Below are positions 13,556-43,005 of a stretch of DNA of 54,015 nt, piece after piece (position 1 is the stretch's first letter; each line of letters opens with the position of its first letter). Origin of the DNA: a virus (lineage: Duplodnaviria > Caudoviricetes); IMG/VR virus record IMGVR_UViG_3300037247_000257, positions 1 through 54,015 of that record; one strand, given 5' to 3'. The position numbers and the translations under genes were made by a program. The notes under the pieces are model-generated. The model searched no databases. It was not told where the DNA came from and saw only the letters and a program-made list of their open reading frames with translations.

Positions 13556-14598
13556 TCTATCTCCTTTCTAAGTTGAACAAACCCTCTAAAGTTACCTGAC
13601 CAGCCTTCTTCAATCACTCTATCCGTAGAGCCAACCGCTTGAGTTGTTCTAGCATTGAACATCATTTCTGACCCACTCATAGCTCTAGCGCAGTGCTCGA
13701 AAGGACTCATGTGACCCATAGCTTTCAATCTATCATAAAGCTTAATATCAGCTTCATAATCATCTTTACCTTCAAAGTTTAGATAAGATACTCTAGCACA
13801 TCTAGCAGTAGCTATCTTAACTCTGCAATCTTGAATAAAACTAAAGGGTACAGATGTTTCTGCTCCTTTATATAACTCACAAATTCTAGCAGAATCAATA
13901 TTGTCTTCAAATGGTATATGCCACTCACCAGCTTTCAACTCTTTAGGTTTAGACTCATTCATAGCATCCCACATAGCTTCAGCTAGTAGAGAGATATGGA
14001 TTTCTCCTTGTCCTTTGTTGATTTTGAGCCAGTCTAAGTCACTAGTTTTACTTAGTGTTTCTTCGTTTCCTCCGTGATAGTGTTTCCAATAGTCTTTCCT
14101 CGACTTAAACTTAGAGTTCTCGTTATCTGGACTGCCATACTGAGGACATCTCAACTCAAAGAAGTTATCATACTCTGTAGCAGTTACAATACAAGTGTAC
14201 CATTGGAAAGGTTCTAAGATACGGTTTACTAGTTGTTTGGTTACTCCGTTAGAGTTCATTGTTCTAGCCATATCTAAAACACCTCTAAGACTACGTTCCC
14301 AATCACACACATGAGCCATTATTTCCGATTCTTTCTCAAAATACTCAGTGCCTTGCATACCACTATGGGTTTTTTGGAACGCTACAGGAATGAAAGGATC
14401 TTCTTCTATATCCTTAATCATTTTGCTCGCAGGTATAGCACGACTACTAGCAGCATTACGTGAGAATAAACGGTGTGTAAGTAACTCGGCATGGATAATT
14501 CTTGGATAAGAAAGGACATAGGTTGTAATCCTATTACCATGCTTGTTAACACTATCTGCAATAATCTCTGCATTAATATTCTTTTTATTCATACTCAT
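13552..14598 (-). CDS. thyX: Flavin-dependent thymidylate synthase-like protein (ThyX/Thy1)
   Basis: ELLTHRLFSRNAASSRAIP, KQLVNRILEPF, ARCARVSY, HMSPFEH. Confidence 0.8.
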   Translation of the reverse strand: MSMNKKNINAEIIADSVNKHGNRITTYVLSYPRIIHAELLTHRLFSRNAASSRAIPASKMIKDIEEDPFIPVAFQKTHSGMQGTEYFEKESEIMAHVCDWERSLRGVLDMARTMNSNGVTKQLVNRILEPFQWYTCIVTATEYDNFFELRCPQYGSPDNENSKFKSRKDYWKHYHGGNEETLSKTSDLDWLKINKGQGEIHISLLAEAMWDAMNESKPKELKAGEWHIPFEDNIDSARICELYKGAETSVPFSFIQDCRVKIATARCARVSYLNFEGKDDYEADIKLYDRLKAMGHMSPFEHCARAMSGSEMMFNARTTQAVGSTDRVIEEGWSGNFRGFVQLRKEIE

Positions 14599-15974
14599 GA
14601 CTCTGCCTCTTCTGTGTCTACTGTTCCAGAATCTTTAATGATACCTTCTAGTACTTTAAACAAGTAACCTTTCTGCTTCAAGAATTTAGGCGTTAATGAT
14701 TCACCATCGATACGAATACATACACCTTCTCTTAAGTGCATAGGAAATACAGTAGATGGATCTTCACCCATAGAAACTACACGGTTAGAAATAGCTTCTT
14801 GCTGAACATGAAAGTGTAGAGTTTCTTCTGCTTCTGACATAGCTTTAGCTTTGATTCTCTTAAGCTCAGGCACATGTTGTACTCCCATTTGCTCACATCT
14901 CATCTTAACTTGGTCCCAAGATAAGTCCATCGACACTCCGTCCATGTTAGTCATAGTCATACGATAAACAAAGACTTTACATTCTTTAGGTTGGCACCCA
15001 TAAGTAAATGATGTAGTATTACCGTAAGCTTCAACAAAGTCTTTATAAACATCTTTATCCATAAAAGACTTAAGCTTCTTGTTACCTTGAGAAGGCATGA
15101 TTAGTTTCCCATCAGGTAAATACCCAACGATCTCATAATACACAGTCTCACCTTTTTCAAGCTTATCTCTAAACAATTCTCCAGTCGTAGTCCAAATGTC
15201 GTGCTCATAATACGATTCACCTTCTTTAGCTACATCACCAATAGTCTTTGTTACTCTACGCGAACCTACTACATGCTTATAAACCATGTGTTGATTCTCG
15301 TCGTTGGTTTTAAAGAGAACTTTACTTAGTAACCAGCTAGAAAACTTCTTTAACAGATTATCAGTTTTATAAATAACTGGCAAGTTGCCCACTCTACAAC
15401 TTGTTCCATGGAGCTTTTCCGTTACGATAAGAATCGAGCCTGGCTTTACATGCTGTAAGTTTCTCATAAATTGATCAGTATCGACATGCTCTTTGAACGT
15501 AGGTACTAGGTTTTCCTTAGCTTTTCCCTGTTTGTTCCCTTGACACGGGGAATTACTTACAACTTGATACTTCTTGCAGATTTCGTAGCTTCCCCAATTC
15601 ATGAACTGTTGCCCAAGGTTACTTTTATCTGGTAATTGCTTGTCTTTGTGAGTATATTCTAGTGAACTAATTGGCATCCATAACCCAGAACATTTTACAC
15701 CTTTTAATCGAATTGGTCTAACACGTCTGCTATCTTCAAGATAACCTGTTTTTGATTCGTCTACGTTTAAGTTAGAATGTCTGTACAAGTTGTTTTTTGA
15801 ACAAAACTCGTGACTTAACTCAGTTTCACAGTCAAATAAAATACCTAGTTCACCAGCTTTGTGCTCTTTACTCACAATAACTGTTTCTCCGAATATCGTA
15901 CTACTTACGATGCGGTCGGCTCCTTCAATAGGCTGAAGGTCTTTTAGTTCCGCGATGATTGCTTCTCCTGTCAT
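14595..15974 (-). CDS. ATP-dependent RNA ligase (DRB0094/Rnl2-like)
   Basis: N-terminal PIEGADRI OB-like domain, motif I TEKLHGTS, motif IV REGVCIR, motif V LKQK. Confidence 0.85.
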   Translation of the reverse strand: MTGEAIIAELKDLQPIEGADRIVSSTIFGETVIVSKEHKAGELGILFDCETELSHEFCSKNNLYRHSNLNVDESKTGYLEDSRRVRPIRLKGVKCSGLWMPISSLEYTHKDKQLPDKSNLGQQFMNWGSYEICKKYQVVSNSPCQGNKQGKAKENLVPTFKEHVDTDQFMRNLQHVKPGSILIVTEKLHGTSCRVGNLPVIYKTDNLLKKFSSWLLSKVLFKTNDENQHMVYKHVVGSRRVTKTIGDVAKEGESYYEHDIWTTTGELFRDKLEKGETVYYEIVGYLPDGKLIMPSQGNKKLKSFMDKDVYKDFVEAYGNTTSFTYGCQPKECKVFVYRMTMTNMDGVSMDLSWDQVKMRCEQMGVQHVPELKRIKAKAMSEAEETLHFHVQQEAISNRVVSMGEDPSTVFPMHLREGVCIRIDGESLTPKFLKQKGYLFKVLEGIIKDSGTVDTEEAES

Positions 15975-15991
15975 GACTAGTTTTTAAGCAT

Positions 15992-16020
15992 AAAAAAAAG
16001 CCCAGGACCTTCCTGAGCTT
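15992..16020 (-). terminator. Intrinsic terminator ending tRNA operon 1
   Basis: Minus strand AAGCTCAGGA-AGG-TCCTGGGCTT running into a T8 tract. Confidence 0.8.
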
Positions 16021-16024
16021 GTCC

Positions 16025-16261
16025 CTACTTGCGTAGGCCTTTTTGATAATGTTTTACATCACGTTCGTTTCGAGCTATGTCATACGGATTTTGTAGAAAC
16101 TTCCAATCACATATATTCCATGGATTGTAAAGCTTTCTGTATTCTTTTCCGTTGCTTAGTTCTCCTTTATAACGTCTAACAGCTTTGGCTGCTTGTCTTT
16201 TAGCATACCCGCCACGGCTTGAATCAGTGTACACTGACACTTTCTTTCTTGATCTGCTCAT
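16025..16261 (-). CDS. Small highly basic protein (MSRSRKK...WNICDWKF)
   Basis: 78 aa from ATG 16261; last gene of tRNA operon 1. Confidence 0.65.
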   Translation of the reverse strand: MSRSRKKVSVYTDSSRGGYAKRQAAKAVRRYKGELSNGKEYRKLYNPWNICDWKFLQNPYDIARNERDVKHYQKGLRK

Positions 16262-16316
16262 ATTCTCTAGGTTTATACCTAAAAGACTGTTCCTTTTTTC
16301 ATAATACAAATTTAAG

Positions 16317-16387
16317 TTGTCCGGGGAGGGATCGAACCTCCATTCTCGGCTTCAAAGGCCGGCGTCCTGCCATTAGACGACCAGACA
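16317..16387 (-). tRNA. tRNA-Gln(TTG)
   Basis: TGTCTGG/CCGGACA acceptor, CT-TTG-AA loop, GGAGG-TTCGATC-CCTCC T arm. Confidence 0.92.
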
Positions 16388-16440
16388 ATAATACAGAGTG
16401 TTCTTTATACCGTTAAACTCTTACAAACATTCTCAATGCG

Positions 16441-16589
16441 TGGAAGTGAGCACGGTTTTCACTTACTAAGGCAAACCCGTTCGCTACCACACTCCTTCAC
16501 TATATACCGTCGCTTCATTCCATAGCAGCTTACCTTTATCACAGCGCTATAATAAAGACCACAGTATAATCCACTTAGCCGGCACTTCC
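16441..16589 (-). ncRNA. Unassigned ~149-nt structured RNA closed by an acceptor-like stem
   Basis: GGAAGTG/CACTTCC-A closing stem; internal helices TATACTGT/ACGGTATA and CTTTATTATAG/CTGTGATAAAG; G-U pairs favour the - strand. Confidence 0.55.
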
Positions 16590-16590
16590 G

Positions 16591-16662
16591 AGGTTCCACA
16601 CAGATTCGAACTGTGCTCTGCTGATTACAAGTCAGCTGCATCACCAACAATGCTTTGGAACC
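16591..16662 (-). tRNA. tRNA-Thr(TGT)
   Basis: GGTTCCA/TGGAACC acceptor, GCTGA-CTTGTAA-TCAGC anticodon arm, TTCGAAT T loop. Confidence 0.93.
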
Positions 16663-16665
16663 TTG

Positions 16666-16739
16666 TGGGTGTCTTCGGGATTCGAACCCTGCTATCCGGA
16701 AGCACAACCCGGCGTAGTCGCCCAGACTACTTAAGACAC
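16666..16739 (-). tRNA. tRNA-His(GTG)
   Basis: GTGTCTT/AAGACAC-CCA, CCGGG-TTGTGCT-TCCGG anticodon arm; T stem slightly irregular. Confidence 0.85.
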
Positions 16740-16741
16740 AG

Positions 16742-16813
16742 TGGAGAGAGAGGGATTTGAACCCCCGACTCCCAGATTTTCAGTCTGATACTCTACCCCT
16801 GAGTTACCTCTCC
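16742..16813 (-). tRNA. tRNA-Phe(GAA)
   Basis: GGAGAGG/TCTCTCC-A, TCAGA-CTGAAAA-TCTGG, TTCAAAT T loop. Confidence 0.93.
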
Positions 16814-16902
16814 ATGGCTCCAGAGATTTTAGATCTTTACTCCAGAACTGATCAGCTTTTACCCACACTCCTCGTGGGTCCTCACAACCAGCTAAGTCGT
16901 TG

Positions 16903-16978
16903 TCTAGGTGGCAAGATTCGAACTTGCGTGCTCGTCCTTCCAAGGGACGCGAGATAAACCGGACTCCTCTACACCTAG
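16903..16978 (-). tRNA. tRNA-Pro(TGG)
   Basis: CTAGGTG/CACCTAG-A, CGTCC-CTTGGAA-GGACG, GCAAG-TTCGAAT-CTTGC. Confidence 0.93.
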
Positions 16979-16982
16979 ATAT

Positions 16983-17019
16983 AAAAAAAACCCTAAGCTC
17001 TTGGTGGAACTTAGGGTTT
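16983..17019 (-). terminator. Attenuator terminator of tRNA operon 1
   Basis: AAACCCTAAGTTC-CACCAA-GAGCTTAGGG followed by T8, ending 4 nt before tRNA-Pro. Confidence 0.88.
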
Positions 17020-17040
17020 AGTTAGTCAAAACAGCAGAAA

Positions 17041-17115
17041 TCAATCACACACACCTAAGTTCCGTCCTATAAAGGTCGGTTGAAATGGCGTATTATGTTG
17101 TGCTATCTTGTTCAT
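17041..17115 (-). CDS. Leader peptide 1 (MNKIAQHNTPFQPTFIGRNLGVCD)
   Basis: 24-codon ORF; codons 6-15 CAA CAT AAT ACG CCA TTT CAA CCG ACC TTT; contains the antiterminator GGAACTTAGG (17054-17063). Confidence 0.8.
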   Translation of the reverse strand: MNKIAQHNTPFQPTFIGRNLGVCD

Positions 17116-17119
17116 ATGG

Positions 17120-17151
17120 TAAACTTAGTCAAAGCTTTTTACTTTTGCAAC
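17120..17151 (-). promoter_or_regulatory. Bacteroidota-type promoter for leader 1
   Basis: GTTG-N20-TAAGTTTA versus consensus TTTG-N19-21-TAnnTTTG; ends 4 nt before the leader ATG. Confidence 0.5.
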
Positions 17152-17349
17152 CATATACTTGATATTATTACAAGAAACTCTTCTTTTGTAACCATTTATC
17201 ACATCTGTTGTGTGTGTTCTTATCATTAAGGTACCACAATCTGTCTGGTGTATTATTACACCATACTGCAAATAACCTGTGTTACTTACAAAGACTTTAT
17301 CTCCTACAAACAAGTCTTTACCGTTTATATCTGTTTCTGTTATTTTCAT
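17125..17349 (-). CDS. Small YopX/KOW-like beta protein
   Basis: DINGKDLFVGDKV motif. Confidence 0.55.
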   Translation of the reverse strand: MKITETDINGKDLFVGDKVFVSNTGYLQYGVIIHQTDCGTLMIRTHTTDVINGYKRRVSCNNIKYMVAKVKSFD

Positions 17350-17570
17350 AATACCATGATCATTTTTTCAGAGTTACCGTTTTGAACCAGTCTCCATAAA
17401 CCTCTGTTACCATCAGGATCAATAAGAATATTACCGTTTTTGTATCTTCTTACAGTACCTGTCCAAATTCGATGTCCCCAATCACCGTAAGCAACTCTTG
17501 CTCCGACTTTAATTTTTTTTCCTTTTACGTCTAGATGTAATTCTGACTCCTCCATTTCTTGTAAGTGCAT
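17346..17570 (-). CDS. Small YopX/KOW-like beta protein
   Basis: DVKGKKIKVGARVAY motif. Confidence 0.55.
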   Translation of the reverse strand: MHLQEMEESELHLDVKGKKIKVGARVAYGDWGHRIWTGTVRRYKNGNILIDPDGNRGLWRLVQNGNSEKMIMVL

Positions 17571-17694
17571 ATTGTTCTTTTACGTGTTTATGAAAAGCGG
17601 AATTTAATTCTTCTACAAAAGCATCGCCTCCGTAAGCAACAAAGTCTCCACACTGAACTTTGTTTAATCCATTTTTATCTCTTGTAACTTTCAT
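17509..17694 (-). CDS. Small protein related to the two downstream ORFs
   Basis: DKNGLNKVQCGDFVAY motif; ATG directly after tRNA-Ser(GCT). Confidence 0.45.
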   Translation of the reverse strand: MKVTRDKNGLNKVQCGDFVAYGGDAFVEELNSAFHKHVKEQYALTRNGGVRITSRRKRKKN

Positions 17695-17695
17695 G

Positions 17696-17781
17696 TAGAG
17701 AGACCGAGATTCGAACTCGGGGGCCCCAGAAGGACCACTCCCTTAGCAGGGGAGCGCAATCGACCGCTCTGCCATCTCTCT
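17696..17781 (-). tRNA. tRNA-Ser(GCT)
   Basis: AGAGAGA/TCTCTCT acceptor, CTCCC-CTGCTAA-GGGAG, long variable arm; discriminator is A rather than the usual G. Confidence 0.92.
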
Positions 17782-17787
17782 AAGATA

Positions 17788-18030
17788 CCGGTTCTCGTAC
17801 CGGCAAACGCTCTTTGATATGCTTAAGGCTATTATGACGTGGTTCGCACACACGCGTGTCGCACCTAAGCAGCATACCCTCATCTTCCTCCGAGTAGAGG
17901 TAAGTATATATCGCGACACTCTAAAGTTTCAGGTGGAAAGATTGTTACACCTTCAATTATTGACCGGTGAGAGACAAACTCCCGGTCACTCTTTCCTAAA
18001 GACGCCTCCTTGTCTGGCTGGGTCACCCCT
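17788..18030 (-). ncRNA. Unassigned ~240-nt multibranch structured RNA between the two tRNA-Ser genes
   Basis: Helices TGACCGG/CCGGTCA, GTGTCGC/GCGACAC, AGGTG/CACCT, CCGGT/ACCGG and closing GGCGTCTTT/AAAGAGCGTT; no credible sense ORF. Confidence 0.5.
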
Positions 18031-18034
18031 ACTG

Positions 18035-18120
18035 CAGAGGGACAGAGATTCGAACTCTGAACAGTGTTACCTGCTACTGGTTTTCAAGACCAGCTCCTCG
18101 TCCAACCACGGACTCCCTCT
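18035..18120 (-). tRNA. tRNA-Ser(TGA)
   Basis: AGAGGGA/TCCCTCT-G, CTGGT-CTTGAAA-ACCAG, long variable arm, CAGAG-TTCGAAT-CTCTG. Confidence 0.92.
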
Positions 18121-18210
18121 ATATGAGCAACATTTTATTTTACATCAGACTTGCTCACCGATAACTGATTTGTGCGTCGCCTGGGGCCAACTACACCAAC
18201 GCAGCGTATG

Positions 18211-18293
18211 TCCAGCCTTGAGGACTCGAACCTCGCCCCCGAAAGGCCCGGATTTACAGTCCGGGTGCTAGATCCAACTAGCTTTAAGTCTGG
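18211..18293 (-). tRNA. tRNA-Tyr(GTA)
   Basis: CCGGA-CTGTAAA-TCCGG anticodon arm, variable arm with TTCG loop, GAGG-TTCGAGT-CCTC; one acceptor mismatch. Confidence 0.88.
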
Positions 18294-18298
18294 ATAAT

Positions 18299-18331
18299 AA
18301 AAAAACCCTCAACGTAAAACGAAGAGGGTTT
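18299..18331 (-). terminator. Attenuator terminator of tRNA operon 2
   Basis: AAACCCTC-TT-CGT-TTT-ACG-TT-GAGGG followed by T7, ending 5 nt before tRNA-Tyr. Confidence 0.8.
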
Positions 18332-18352
18332 CTGTAAGTTATTAGAAAAAGT

Positions 18353-18421
18353 TTATACAGTATCCTCTTGTCGGTGTTTCTCCGATTTCTTTGAATAACT
18401 ATATAGCTCTACTCTAATCAT
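18353..18421 (-). CDS. Leader peptide 2 (MIRVELYSYSKKSEKHRQEDTV)
   Basis: 22-codon ORF; codons 7-10 TAT AGT TAT TCA and codon 13 TCG; contains the antiterminator GACAAGAGGAT (18362-18372). Confidence 0.78.
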   Translation of the reverse strand: MIRVELYSYSKKSEKHRQEDTV

Positions 18422-18425
18422 GTTG

Positions 18426-18457
18426 CTAAACTACAACTTGTGTTTCTATATTCCAAA
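18426..18457 (-). promoter_or_regulatory. Bacteroidota-type promoter for leader 2
   Basis: TTTG-N20-TAGTTTAG; ends 4 nt before the leader ATG. Confidence 0.6.
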
Positions 18458-18686
18458 CTGTTTCTGACATTTTTCACATACCTCGGTTCTTACTTCTTCA
18501 TATATACCTTAACCCGAAAAAGATTCTAAATACTTTGAATTACTAGTTTATTAAACGTTCATAAAAGCTTTGTCATCAATACCCATGTCGGAAAAGGGGC
18601 TACTTCAATAATTAGGACTTATTACTAAGCGTCTTCACAGATAGCGAATATTATAGACAAGAAAATAACGCACAATACACCCAGTA

Positions 18687-18905
18687 TCATAACTCACAGT
18701 GGATAGATCTGTCACCAGACGTACGTTTATTATACTTGTCATCTAACTTTTTTCTTTCTTCTTTTTCAAGACCTCCAAATAAAGTTGCAAAAGCATCTGC
18801 TTTTTTTTGGGATATCCTTGTTTGATAAGGTCCTTCTGCATAGTCGACTAAAGCAAAACCAAGAATGATACCTCCTAGTAATCCTAGAATAATTACAAGT
18901 ATCAT
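18687..18905 (-). CDS. Small membrane-anchored protein
   Basis: N-terminal TM helix. Confidence 0.55.
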   Translation of the reverse strand: MILVIILGLLGGIILGFALVDYAEGPYQTRISQKKADAFATLFGGLEKEERKKLDDKYNKRTSGDRSIHCEL

Positions 18906-20293
18906 TTCTTGTTCTTAATAGCGTCTAAGATAAGAAGCTGCATAGGATCTCCGCTTTTGCTACCAGAACCACCACCAATGTAAGTAGTAGGTAACTTAAG
19001 TTTAGATAATGCTTCAGCTTTAGCTACTTCAGCATCTAACTGCATCTTAAGCTTAACTTCAGGAGTAATACCCGCGATAACTTTCTTCTTAATCTCATAA
19101 GCTTCAGCATCAGCTTTTACTCTTTTCTTCTCAGCATTAATTTTCTCAGTTTCTAAAGCTATCAAAGCTAACTCTTTATTAGACTTTTCTTCTTGAACTT
19201 TAGTCTCTTTAGCAATCAAGATAGATACAGCAGCTTTCTCTTGTTTAGATCTTTCTGCTTCCTTATCTCTCTCACCTTCAGCTCTGATACGTTGTTGCTC
19301 CATCTTAGCAGTCTCGATCTTTTGCTGTTGCATTTGACGCTTAGCAGATTCGTCTTTCTGTTTGTTAAGTCTTGCCTGGTAGCCAGGGTCCATTTTAACT
19401 TGATCAACGATAACACTAGTTACTATAATACCATTTTCAGTAATCTCATGTGGAATTCTGATAGGTACACCGTTTTTAGTGATTTTCTCTACTACATATC
19501 TTACAGAGATATCTTTAATCTTTCTTTTAACTTTAGTATCCGTGATATCTGAAGTATAAGTAGTATCTCTATATTCATTCTTACGAACTTTATAAGTACC
19601 GTCTGTAAGTTGTTCATCAAACGCTTGTCTAAAAGACTGAGCATCACCCGAGATGTAATCTTGAGCGGAGAACATATAACCAGTTTGGATAGCTTGCTCA
19701 CGTACAGTTGGTAATAAAGTTTGGTGAACTAAGTTTTCCATAGTTCTAAACTTCACAGCCATTTTAATGAACTTCTCAGGATCCTTTGGTAGTTCAAACT
19801 TCGATGTAAGCGACATGTCAGCAGTTACTTGGTCAACAAAACGAATAGGAATCGGCTTCATAGCCCCTTCTACTTCGTCACTGATTTCACCGTAAGATGC
19901 TTTAACATCGATGTATTTCTGCCATTCTTGCACTTTAACAAAAGGTCCTACGTAATGATAACCTTCGTCCATTATAGCACTTTTAGAACCACCTGGTTTG
20001 ATAATCAAATACTGGTACCCAGCTTCACCATACATTAAAGTGTTACTAATGAAGAATAGACCAAAACTAATCAACAACATAACAACTCCTTTTTTCCAAC
20101 CAGCTATCGCTAGTAAAATAGCAGGAGATGCTTCAACCGCTACTTTCTTAGTTATTTTCTGCTCCTTCCATCTGTCCCACTCTTCAACTTCCTTAACCTC
20201 TGTCTTTTCTTGCAGCGATAAGAAACTAGTACCAATAGCTACAGCACCTAGTATTAGCAAGATTATTCCTGCGAGTATAATTAAACCAATCAT
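18902..20293 (-). CDS. SPFH/Band 7 (prohibitin/flotillin-like) membrane protein
   Basis: N-terminal TM helices, Band-7-like domain (IPIRFVD, LLPTVRE), long A/E/K coiled coil. Confidence 0.8.
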   Translation of the reverse strand: MIGLIILAGIILLILGAVAIGTSFLSLQEKTEVKEVEEWDRWKEQKITKKVAVEASPAILLAIAGWKKGVVMLLISFGLFFISNTLMYGEAGYQYLIIKPGGSKSAIMDEGYHYVGPFVKVQEWQKYIDVKASYGEISDEVEGAMKPIPIRFVDQVTADMSLTSKFELPKDPEKFIKMAVKFRTMENLVHQTLLPTVREQAIQTGYMFSAQDYISGDAQSFRQAFDEQLTDGTYKVRKNEYRDTTYTSDITDTKVKRKIKDISVRYVVEKITKNGVPIRIPHEITENGIIVTSVIVDQVKMDPGYQARLNKQKDESAKRQMQQQKIETAKMEQQRIRAEGERDKEAERSKQEKAAVSILIAKETKVQEEKSNKELALIALETEKINAEKKRVKADAEAYEIKKKVIAGITPEVKLKMQLDAEVAKAEALSKLKLPTTYIGGGSGSKSGDPMQLLILDAIKNKK

Positions 20294-42336: not shown

Positions 42337-42353
42337 AATTAGATTTTTTAAAG

Positions 42354-42727
42354 TGGAGACGCAGGGAGTCGAACCCTGGTCCAGCGAAGCACTATGTCCA
42401 CACGATATACGAACGTAAAGGTTTTAAAGCTCCACAGCTACATCTTATTTACTGTAGGTGCCAAACAGAGCAGCGTTTTACATCTCTACCCGATGGATTC
42501 TAGTGTGACTAGTAACTTGTGCAACTTTCTGTTCCTCCGTAGTTACAACGGGCGCGATCCTATGCTGCTACAGCTACAGGTGCCACAAGGGCTCTCGCTT
42601 CGGTAAGTAAACTTACCATGATTGTCTCGTCGTTTCCGATTAAACAGTTGGAACGTTTTTACAGTGTCTCATTCCATCACTGGCCGCGTGTGTACATAGT
42701 TACAACCTGTCAATTCCGGTCGTCCCC
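42354..42727 (-). ncRNA. ssrA: tmRNA
   Basis: GGGGACG/CGTCTCC-A acceptor with G3-U70, GGAATTGAC D-loop analogue, CAGGG-TTCGACT-CCCTG T arm; internal tag frame 42637-42560 GNDETIMVSLLTEARALVAPVAVAA*. Confidence 0.93.
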
Positions 42728-42731
42728 ATGT

Positions 42732-42771
42732 AAAAAGAACTCGGTACATGAATTAACTTTACCGAGTTCTT
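42732..42771 (-). terminator. Terminator-like hairpin directly upstream of the tmRNA
   Basis: AAGAACTCGGTA-13 nt-TACCGAGTTCTT followed by TTT. Confidence 0.65.
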
Positions 42772-43005
42772 ATAATTATTATTCTTTCTTTGCTTTTTAG
42801 TTACTTCGTTTTGTTTTATGAGTAAAAAACGAATAGTATAGTAGCAGACAGAAACCCAAATTCTGCGCCACCTCCTTGCTGTTACTCGCTTGTAACTTGC
42901 CTCCTAGTCAAGTATCGATCGCTACTGAACTGGTTTGACAAGTAATCAAGTATAACACTACCATGCTCATGACAAGTAGTATCAATGGTATAAGTATCAA
43001 CTTTA

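Follow-up and report, generated by a model that had tools for sequence, protein, structure and literature searches.

A predicted leader-peptide attenuator in front of a tRNA operon of an uncultured marine phage

The DNA considered here, which we call the window, is the complete 54,015-base virus record IMGVR_UViG_3300037247_000257 of IMG/VR (Duplodnaviria; Caudoviricetes), derived from an uncultured marine phage and estimated to be 42% complete. Between 10 and 45 kb its genes run leftward, and within this block five transfer RNA (tRNA) genes, for Pro, Phe, His, Thr and Gln, follow behind an intrinsic terminator that is itself preceded by a small open reading frame (ORF) and a promoter-like element (Table 1). 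An earlier note on this DNA had read this arrangement as a leader-peptide attenuator. Our analysis supports this reading through the match between leader codons and tRNA cargo, the co-variation of terminator and antiterminator, the folds calculated for stalled ribosomes, and the recovery of comparable arrangements in 24 units and in the cultured Cellulophaga phage phi4:1. We consequently regard it as likely that a ribosome-mediated transcription attenuator gates the tRNA operon of the window phage. Computation from the nucleotide sequence shows the parts of this element and their geometry, how they are conserved and co-vary, and that the leader codons correspond to the tRNA sets.

Table 1. Features of the attenuator-like leader and of the tRNA unit behind it (positions refer to the window), together with the leaders of two homologous loci.
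Feature	Position	Strand	Remarks
-33-like GTTG	17151..17148	minus	20 nucleotides upstream of the -7-like box; putative Bacteroidota-type promoter
-7-like box TAAGTTTA	17127..17120	minus	ends 4 nucleotides before the ATG; overlaps the stop codon of the upstream 74-amino-acid ORF
Leader ORF, 24 codons plus stop, MNKIAQHNTPFQPTFIGRNLGVCD	17115..17041	minus	ATG 17115-17113, TGA 17043-17041
Long-range helix, 5' arm (region 1)	17110..17087	minus	spans codons 2-10; minimum free energy folds
Sensing codons 6-15 (Q H N T P F Q P T F)	17100..17071	minus	9/10 match the five downstream tRNAs
Small hairpin CCGACCT-TTAT-AGGACGG (1:2 or pause-type)	17079..17062	minus	in the minimum free energy fold
Antiterminator strand (region 2)	17064..17050	minus	core GGAACTTAGG at 17063-17054, a near-copy of the terminator 3' arm
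Long-range helix, 3' arm	17055..17027	minus	spans the last codons, the stop codon and the spacer; minimum free energy folds
Intrinsic terminator	17019..16983	minus	stem 17019-16988 with 13 pairs, loop of 6; T8 at 16990-16983; hairpin free energy (dG) -17.8
tRNA-Pro(TGG), first gene	16978..16902	minus	ARAGORN and Rfam
tRNA-Phe(GAA)	16813..16741	minus	ARAGORN and Rfam
tRNA-His(GTG)	16740..16667	minus	ARAGORN only; absent from the Rfam list at E-values up to 1
tRNA-Thr(TGT)	16662..16590	minus	ARAGORN and Rfam
tRNA-Gln(TTG), last tRNA of the unit	16387..16316	minus	ARAGORN and Rfam
Next intrinsic terminator	16020..15998	minus	likely end of the transcription unit; after a 94-amino-acid ORF (16309-16025), presumably co-transcribed
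Leader of L065, MKRIEQHNNTWQPVVKRARIVIF			downstream tRNAs Pro, Glu, His, Gln, Asn, Trp
Leader of L067, MRLTNTIQNFWQPCFISRGNRYIV			downstream tRNAs Pro, Phe, Trp, Gln and a fifth tRNA

The sensing codons of the leader ORF read CAA CAT AAT ACG CCA TTT CAA CCG ACC TTT. Gln, His, Thr, Pro or Phe is encoded by nine of these ten codons and by none of the remaining 14, just as the earlier note had described, with every coordinate correct on the minus strand, and ARAGORN calls the same five downstream tRNAs that it had named. Among 107,972 ten-codon segments read in all six frames of the contig, merely ten contain at least nine codons from this five-amino-acid set; eight of these belong to one low-complexity run, one reads QVFQHHFQHQ, and all five amino acids occur together in the leader segment alone.

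The terminator is strong and ends 4 nucleotides before tRNA-Pro, which leaves no space for a promoter between the two. The 10-nucleotide complementarity previously proposed to join the antiterminator core to the terminator proves to be exact, since GGAACTTAGG (17063-17054) pairs without mismatch with CCTAAGTTCC (17015-17006) in the terminator 5' arm. The calculated energy of the antiterminator duplex, -18.2 kcal/mol versus -7.2 in shuffled sequences (z = -5.2), was reached by 0 of 200 shuffles, and neither did any of 200 shuffles match the fold of the whole leader (-45.8 kcal/mol; z = -5.8). The small hairpin, already put forward as a competing structure, is present in the minimum free energy (MFE) fold, where it extends over codons 13-18 and into the start of the antiterminator strand; it is enclosed by the long-range helix, a structure absent from the earlier note.

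Folds with a stalled ribosome were calculated on a transcript truncated directly ahead of the terminator 3' arm, with the 12 nucleotides downstream of the ribosomal aminoacyl (A) site covered. The long helix forms when no ribosome is present and the terminator 5' arm is then free, while an A site placed at any of codons 6-13 allows the antiterminator to form (-16.3 to -18.1). It is lost when the A site is moved to codon 15 (-4.4), and it is blocked by a ribosome at the stop codon. In these constrained folds the switch to the antiterminator is seen solely with the A site at codons 6-13. A placement of codons that frees the antiterminator on stalling and blocks it on finishing is a feature of the class that is seen in silico in the window, and less cleanly in the homologous loci L065 and L067. 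All those sequence-level defining features of leader-peptide attenuators that could be tested are present in the window.

These structures lend themselves to the following regulatory model. During smooth translation, the ribosome would pass through the antiterminator strand to the stop codon, the terminator would form, and few transcripts would read through. A ribosome stalled at codons 6-13 (Gln, His, Asn, Thr, Pro, Phe, Gln, Pro) would cover the upstream competitor and leave the antiterminator strand free; its pairing with the terminator 5' arm would then allow the polymerase to read into tRNA-Pro, -Phe, -His, -Thr and -Gln. If the leader were not translated at all, both the long helix and the terminator should form. 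The outcome would be a demand-driven feedback that responds to tRNA shortage as a five-input OR gate, in which a lack of any one of the five charged tRNAs would raise the synthesis of the phage-encoded copies.

Transcription and translation of this leader would probably start close together. Promoters of Bacteroidota carry TTTG at -33 and TAnnTTTG at -7, with the two boxes about 19-21 nucleotides apart, and the -7-like box of the window departs from this consensus in its last base, which is A instead of G. In an alignment of the window with L065 and L067 the pattern nTTG-N20-TAnGTTT-N5-ATG is invariant, and -7-like boxes with the same spacing of 4 nucleotides to the ATG are found in L065 (TATGTTTG), L067 (TAGGTTTA), L121 (TACCTTTG) and phi4:1 (TATGTTTG). 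Judged from the arrangement nTTG-N20-TAnnTTTR-N4, transcription probably starts at or beside the ATG at 17115, and the transcript would be leaderless or nearly so; the conserved box 4 nucleotides from the ATG hence supports leaderless starts, a separate earlier observation. The leader lacks a Shine-Dalgarno sequence, and this is normal for the window phage because a Shine-Dalgarno-like tetramer precedes merely 7 of 27 long ORFs in the window. The scarcity of such tetramers, together with A-rich upstream regions, would be consistent with a Bacteroidota-type host. Such A-rich upstream regions without Shine-Dalgarno sequences are known from Bacteroidota.

An RNA ligase gene (Pfam RNA_ligase plus an OB domain; 14595-15974) lies just downstream of the tRNA unit, and an alignment of its relatives, scanned against metagenome contigs of the Joint Genome Institute (JGI), led to four loci. 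Two of them, L065 and L067, carry tRNA genes upstream of the ligase; L066 and L068 have no tRNA and are uninformative either way. Homologous ORFs of 22-24 codons precede the tRNAs in L065, L067 and phi4:1, and the window shares with L065 and L067 the CAA-CCG pair at codons 12-13 and a hairpin directly after it, with different hairpin sequences in the latter two. Around this core, the codons follow the tRNA set of each locus: across the window, L065 and L067, a His codon is found in the leader solely where tRNA-His is present, Glu in L065 only, and Trp in L065 and L067 only, while among codons 2-16 Phe is restricted to the window and L067 and Cys to L067. The odd Cys codon of the latter leader is explained by the fifth tRNA of its unit (1173-1244 of L067; Rfam, 46 bits), which ARAGORN missed and whose anticodon we read by eye as Cys(GCA); a terminator follows at about 1250-1275. 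All 16 tRNA amino acids of the three units are represented in their own leaders, as opposed to 22 of 32 in cross pairs, and the mismatches all run in one direction: some leader codons lack a tRNA in their unit (Asn in the window and L067; Thr in L065 and L067), but every tRNA has its codon. Each of the three loci possesses a terminator sequence of its own and, in the last third of the ORF, an antiterminator strand that matches it; the duplex energies are -14.2 for L065 (reached by 3 of 200 shuffles) and -15.5 for L067 (0 of 200). Distinct terminators, each with its own antiterminator, amount to co-variation of the switch.

These homologues bear directly on the simplest alternative, namely that an ordinary terminator marks the end of the upstream block or serves as an insulator, that the small ORF is fortuitous or unrelated, and that the tRNAs are transcribed by constitutive leak-through or from an unrecognised promoter. 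A terminator behind the 74-amino-acid ORF would be expected regardless of any attenuator, no promoter would fit between the T run and tRNA-Pro, and AT-rich DNA often contains small ORFs (one is present in 10 of the 37 reverse complements that served as controls for the pooled set described below). Chance does not readily account, however, for the fact that L065 and L067 retain the ORF at a similar length and with the CAA-CCG core while the codons track the tRNA set, for antiterminator complementarity beyond that of random sequence, or for matching codons at the expected positions. In phi4:1, moreover, the upstream gene has a separate terminator before the promoter-like box. We therefore consider this explanation very unlikely.

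The leader-peptide attenuator recurs as a candidate in Cellulophaga phage phi4:1 (NC_021788; L219 in our set), which is available in culture and contains two attenuator-like units (2330-2493 and 3265-3467 of L219) that share a duplicated promoter-like stretch of about 40 nucleotides. In the first unit, the gene upstream ends at a terminator of its own, which is followed by the box TATGTTTG 4 nucleotides before the ATG. The leader, MKIQRLHLQELEQPIISGGTGV, has 22 codons, with Gln-Pro at codons 13-14, and its codons 4-14 all specify amino acids of the seven tRNAs that follow (Pro, Glu, Gln, His, Leu-TAG, Leu-TAA and Arg-ACG); Arg is encoded by CGT, and Leu by TTA (twice) and CTA. The terminator ends 9 nucleotides before tRNA-Pro and has an antiterminator counterpart. 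Hence, the first unit resembles the window in its promoter-like box and 4-nucleotide spacing, in a terminator placed a few nucleotides before tRNA-Pro and in cargo-matched codons, and differs from it in another tRNA set with correspondingly different codons and in the separate terminator of the upstream gene. The second unit, in front of tRNA-Ala, has 16 consecutive matching codons and uses AGA in front of tRNA-Arg(TCT); here a GTG start follows a short A-rich 5' untranslated region. Its leader ORF is annotated as the hypothetical protein gp075, and this annotation is the point that speaks for a functional micropeptide whose composition has nothing to do with regulation. Such a peptide would leave the correspondence between composition and cargo unexplained, and the peptide is poorly conserved among homologues except where tRNA sets agree; we regard this possibility as extremely improbable.

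The attenuator was then considered in a pool of 181 loci plus the window, fetched by RNA ligase homology or by a tRNA-Pro D-arm pattern and thus blind to leader features. A unit was defined by a tRNA within 40 nucleotides behind a hairpin (dG at most -10) with a T run, and by an ATG-initiated ORF of 10-50 codons whose stop lies 35-75 nucleotides before that T run. The pool contains 48 terminator-preceded tRNAs, 38 of which have a qualifying leader ORF, corresponding to 24 distinct leaders; counted over distinct upstream regions, 28 of 37 contain such an ORF, as compared with 10 of 37 reverse complements and 9.7 +/- 2.7 in shuffled sequences. The 24 leaders contain codons for 174 of the 181 amino acids of their own tRNAs, a recall that 0 of 20,000 permutations reached (mean 147.7, maximum 168), with the reservation that permutation p-values are optimistic because the units are phylogenetically related. 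Read in frames +1 and +2, the recall drops to 127/181 and 130/181. Trp provides the clearest single case, since a Trp codon is present in 10 of 12 leaders that precede a tRNA-Trp and in 3 of 12 that do not. Within genomes that contain two or three units (L005 and L007, as well as the window, whose second unit is described below), own pairs match in 35 of 35 cases and cross pairs in 22 of 49 (p = 7e-9), which excludes genome-wide composition as the explanation.

The matching codons are also placed where stalling would matter. Over the 18 units with tRNA sets of at most ten amino acids, the share of codons from the set peaks at 51 of 90 for those that start 16-30 nucleotides ahead of the antiterminator strand; within the strand it is 17 of 80, and near the 5' end (-105 to -91) it is 1 of 20. 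In most units the terminator 5' arm finds its best partner in the last third of the ORF (mean z -2.1; 13 of 24 below -2).

The loss of the match outside the reading frame is relevant to a further alternative, a translation-independent RNA switch with an uncharged tRNA or a protein as direct ligand of the leader RNA, as in a T-box or in protein-mediated antitermination. A strongly structured leader (z -5.8) and alternative terminator and antiterminator pairings would be compatible with such a device, whatever its trigger. Yet the signal resides in the reading frame and disappears in frames +1 and +2, a single specifier codon could not stand for as many as six amino acids, and the region 15900-19000 yielded neither a T-box match at E-values up to 1 nor any non-tRNA Rfam family at gathering score. 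A switch of this type appears highly improbable to us.

A more serious question for the attenuator concerns the signal it would perceive. The same hardware might respond to amino-acid starvation or to a general slowing of translation, in which case leader and cargo would correspond by amino-acid identity only. Classical attenuators sense charged tRNA and are blind to whether the tRNA or the amino acid is low. In addition, the correspondence in the pooled units holds at the level of the amino acid and not of the codon box for the six-fold families Ser, Leu and Arg, where the box agrees in 33 of 64 codons overall and, within the sensing zone, in 14 of 31 as compared with 19 of 33 outside it. This result argues against a general sensing of individual tRNA species and in this respect counts against the model as we have outlined it; with the pooled codon-box match absent, any claim at the level of isoacceptors is anecdotal and confined to phi4:1 and the second leader of the window. 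On the other hand, additional tRNA would be no remedy for starvation, so that starvation sensing offers no reason for the cargo match within genomes (35/35 versus 22/49), and the pairings of CGT with Arg(ACG), AGA with Arg(TCT), TTA with Leu(TAA) and CTA with Leu(TAG) in phi4:1 likewise point away from it. On balance we hold a starvation signal to be rather unlikely.

Further observations weigh against a tRNA-sensing attenuator or reduce the force of the statistics, the relatedness of the pooled units among them. Background recall in the permutations is already 82%, precision is modest (381 of 829 codons, with 307 expected), 10 of the 48 terminator-preceded tRNAs lack a qualifying ORF, and the leader of L142 matches poorly, with two of three amino acids. 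In the window, the single Asn codon has no tRNA-Asn partner anywhere in the 54 kb, as the earlier note had remarked for this DNA, and ACC lies outside the standard wobble of the tRNA-Thr anticodon UGU; unmatched Thr and Asn codons recur in the leaders of L065 and L067. No contig-wide enrichment of the promoter motif is seen (7 occurrences versus 5.5 in shuffles), and promoter function is for this reason termed putative here. MFE folds of the full-length transcript keep the terminator in every case and never the antiterminator, and the switch must therefore be kinetic, that is co-transcriptional, like that of trp. In L065 stalled ribosomes act as in the window, but the antiterminator persists with a ribosome at the stop codon, and in L067 it forms even without a ribosome.

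Several features of the tRNA operons themselves deserve description. The anticodon loop of tRNA-His, inspected by eye, has an unusual C at position 37. A conserved element of about 36 nucleotides stands just before the second tRNA in all three relatives (window 16850-16814; L067 about 903-938; L065 528-568); it ends in GCCA(T), contains the repeats CTGGAG...CTGGAG in the window and L067 and CTTGGG...CTTGGG in L065, and makes up the entire spacer after tRNA-Pro in L065. Long non-coding stretches occur between Thr and Gln in the window (16589-16388, about 200 nucleotides) and between Gln and Asn in L065 (797-1203, about 400 nucleotides), and neither a tRNA nor an Rfam match was found in them. 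An Rfam cmscan of 15900-19000 brought solely tRNA-type models to gathering score.

Two tRNA-Ser genes called by ARAGORN lie further upstream of the Pro-Gln cluster, and they belong to a second unit of the window (18421-18300, minus strand). Its leader, MIRVELYSYSKKSEKHRQEDTV, contains the codons TAT AGT TAT TCA and later TCG; the terminator (AACCCTC...GAGGGTT plus T7) is followed by a tRNA-Tyr-like sequence, tRNA-Ser(TGA) and tRNA-Ser(GCT). The antiterminator partner is weaker than that of the first unit (energy -10.1, reached by 14 of 200 shuffles). The tRNA-Tyr(GTA)-like sequence, at about 18295-18210 on the minus strand directly behind the terminator, is called by neither ARAGORN nor Rfam; by eye its acceptor stem contains a single A-G mismatch, and its D stem has five pairs. 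A gene for a transfer-messenger RNA (tmRNA) with a 25-residue tag (42353-42875; ARAGORN) lies in the same leftward block as the ligase and the tRNA units.

Close relatives of the window were not found among named phages, for which blastn of 16200-18300 returned tRNA-sized matches alone, in 29 records; the closest named matches of tRNA-Pro are in Cellulophaga phages. The RNA ligase retrieved by tblastn solely distant ligases from named phage records, all below 60% identity. One ligase relative (P0001) reaches 93% identity. In IMG/VR, no close relative was found with the 74-amino-acid neighbour, the ligase or a 26-nucleotide piece of the leader as query. The conserved promoter-ATG-CAACC pattern has four matches in viral contigs, all due to chance, and 33 in genome contigs, none of which (0/33) has a tRNA within 450 nucleotides. 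Among the sequencing runs listed for this DNA, none is of RNA. Contigs of four DNA runs match the window in short fragments only; one of them, of 189 nucleotides, spans 17008-17196 with nine differences and is not usable as evidence. Another contig, from run X4, joins position 17910 to 18034 through 14 other letters and therefore represents a relative in which most of the sequence that separates the two tRNA-Ser genes is absent.

To our knowledge, the regulation of phage tRNA genes is essentially unknown; these genes are usually seen as constitutive codon-usage add-ons or as decoys against tRNA-cleaving defences. In a tentative extension of our reading, for which we see a limited probability, Bacteroidota phages including phi4:1 might carry modular tRNA demand sensors, with one multi-input OR gate per operon, and in the window the RNA ligase, the tmRNA and the second unit might join with the first to form an island for translation rescue and counter-defence. 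Such a sensor would be switched on only on failure of the host pool of one of its tRNAs, which could follow cleavage by anticodon nucleases or other defences that target tRNA, host shut-off, or a mismatch in codon usage. The hypothesis is directly testable because phi4:1 is in culture.

We found no description of leader-peptide attenuation of tRNA genes in the literature, nor any paper that presents the phi4:1 units as attenuators, a statement that covers search listings and the opening parts of abstracts, with subscription journals outside this coverage; those passages of PMC5335546 that contain 'attenuat' or 'tRNA' are irrelevant to the attenuation of tRNA genes. If true, our reading would be the first case of feedback control of tRNA genes by leader-peptide attenuation, and a textbook mechanism of metabolic control would then be seen to act on the translation apparatus, and in viruses, as well. 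In practical terms, a leader of this type would predict which tRNAs share one transcription unit, would reveal tRNA genes missed by finders, as with the Cys tRNA of L067, and would represent a compact and programmable multi-input sensor.

A comparison with known systems places the window element among several types of control. T-box riboswitches of Firmicutes carry out tRNA-sensing transcription antitermination without a ribosome. Like them, the window element would set the choice between terminator and antiterminator according to tRNA status, and the genes behind it belong to the translation apparatus; in contrast to them, it has no Rfam match for Stem I, specifier loop or T-box sequence, and the signal is carried by a reading frame. 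A second system for comparison is the pheM leader, which attenuates pheST, encoding phenylalanyl-tRNA synthetase. Here, too, an attenuator acts on a component of the translation apparatus, with feedback via the level of charged tRNA. pheM differs in that it is cellular, responds to a single amino acid and controls a synthetase, whereas the product in the window is the tRNA itself.

The enterobacterial attenuators include trpL, hisL, pheL and leuL, as well as the multivalent leaders thrL (Thr, Ile) and ilvL/ivbL (Ile, Leu, Val). With these the window shares a short, presumably translated leader rich in regulatory codons, the 1:2, 2:3 and 3:4 pairings, a terminator just before the regulated genes, and a stop codon and antiterminator placed such that a finishing ribosome would favour termination. 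The differences concern the target, which in the window consists of tRNA genes and not of biosynthetic enzymes; the leader, which mixes five or six amino acids as a checklist of the cargo, whereas the enterobacterial leaders have runs of one to three; and the setting, a phage with a probable Bacteroidota host, a promoter-like box 4 nucleotides from the ATG, no Shine-Dalgarno sequence and an additional long-range helix. New in comparison with all these systems are tRNA genes as the target, a checklist of up to six cargo-matched amino acids, and a viral, Shine-Dalgarno-free and probably leaderless setting.

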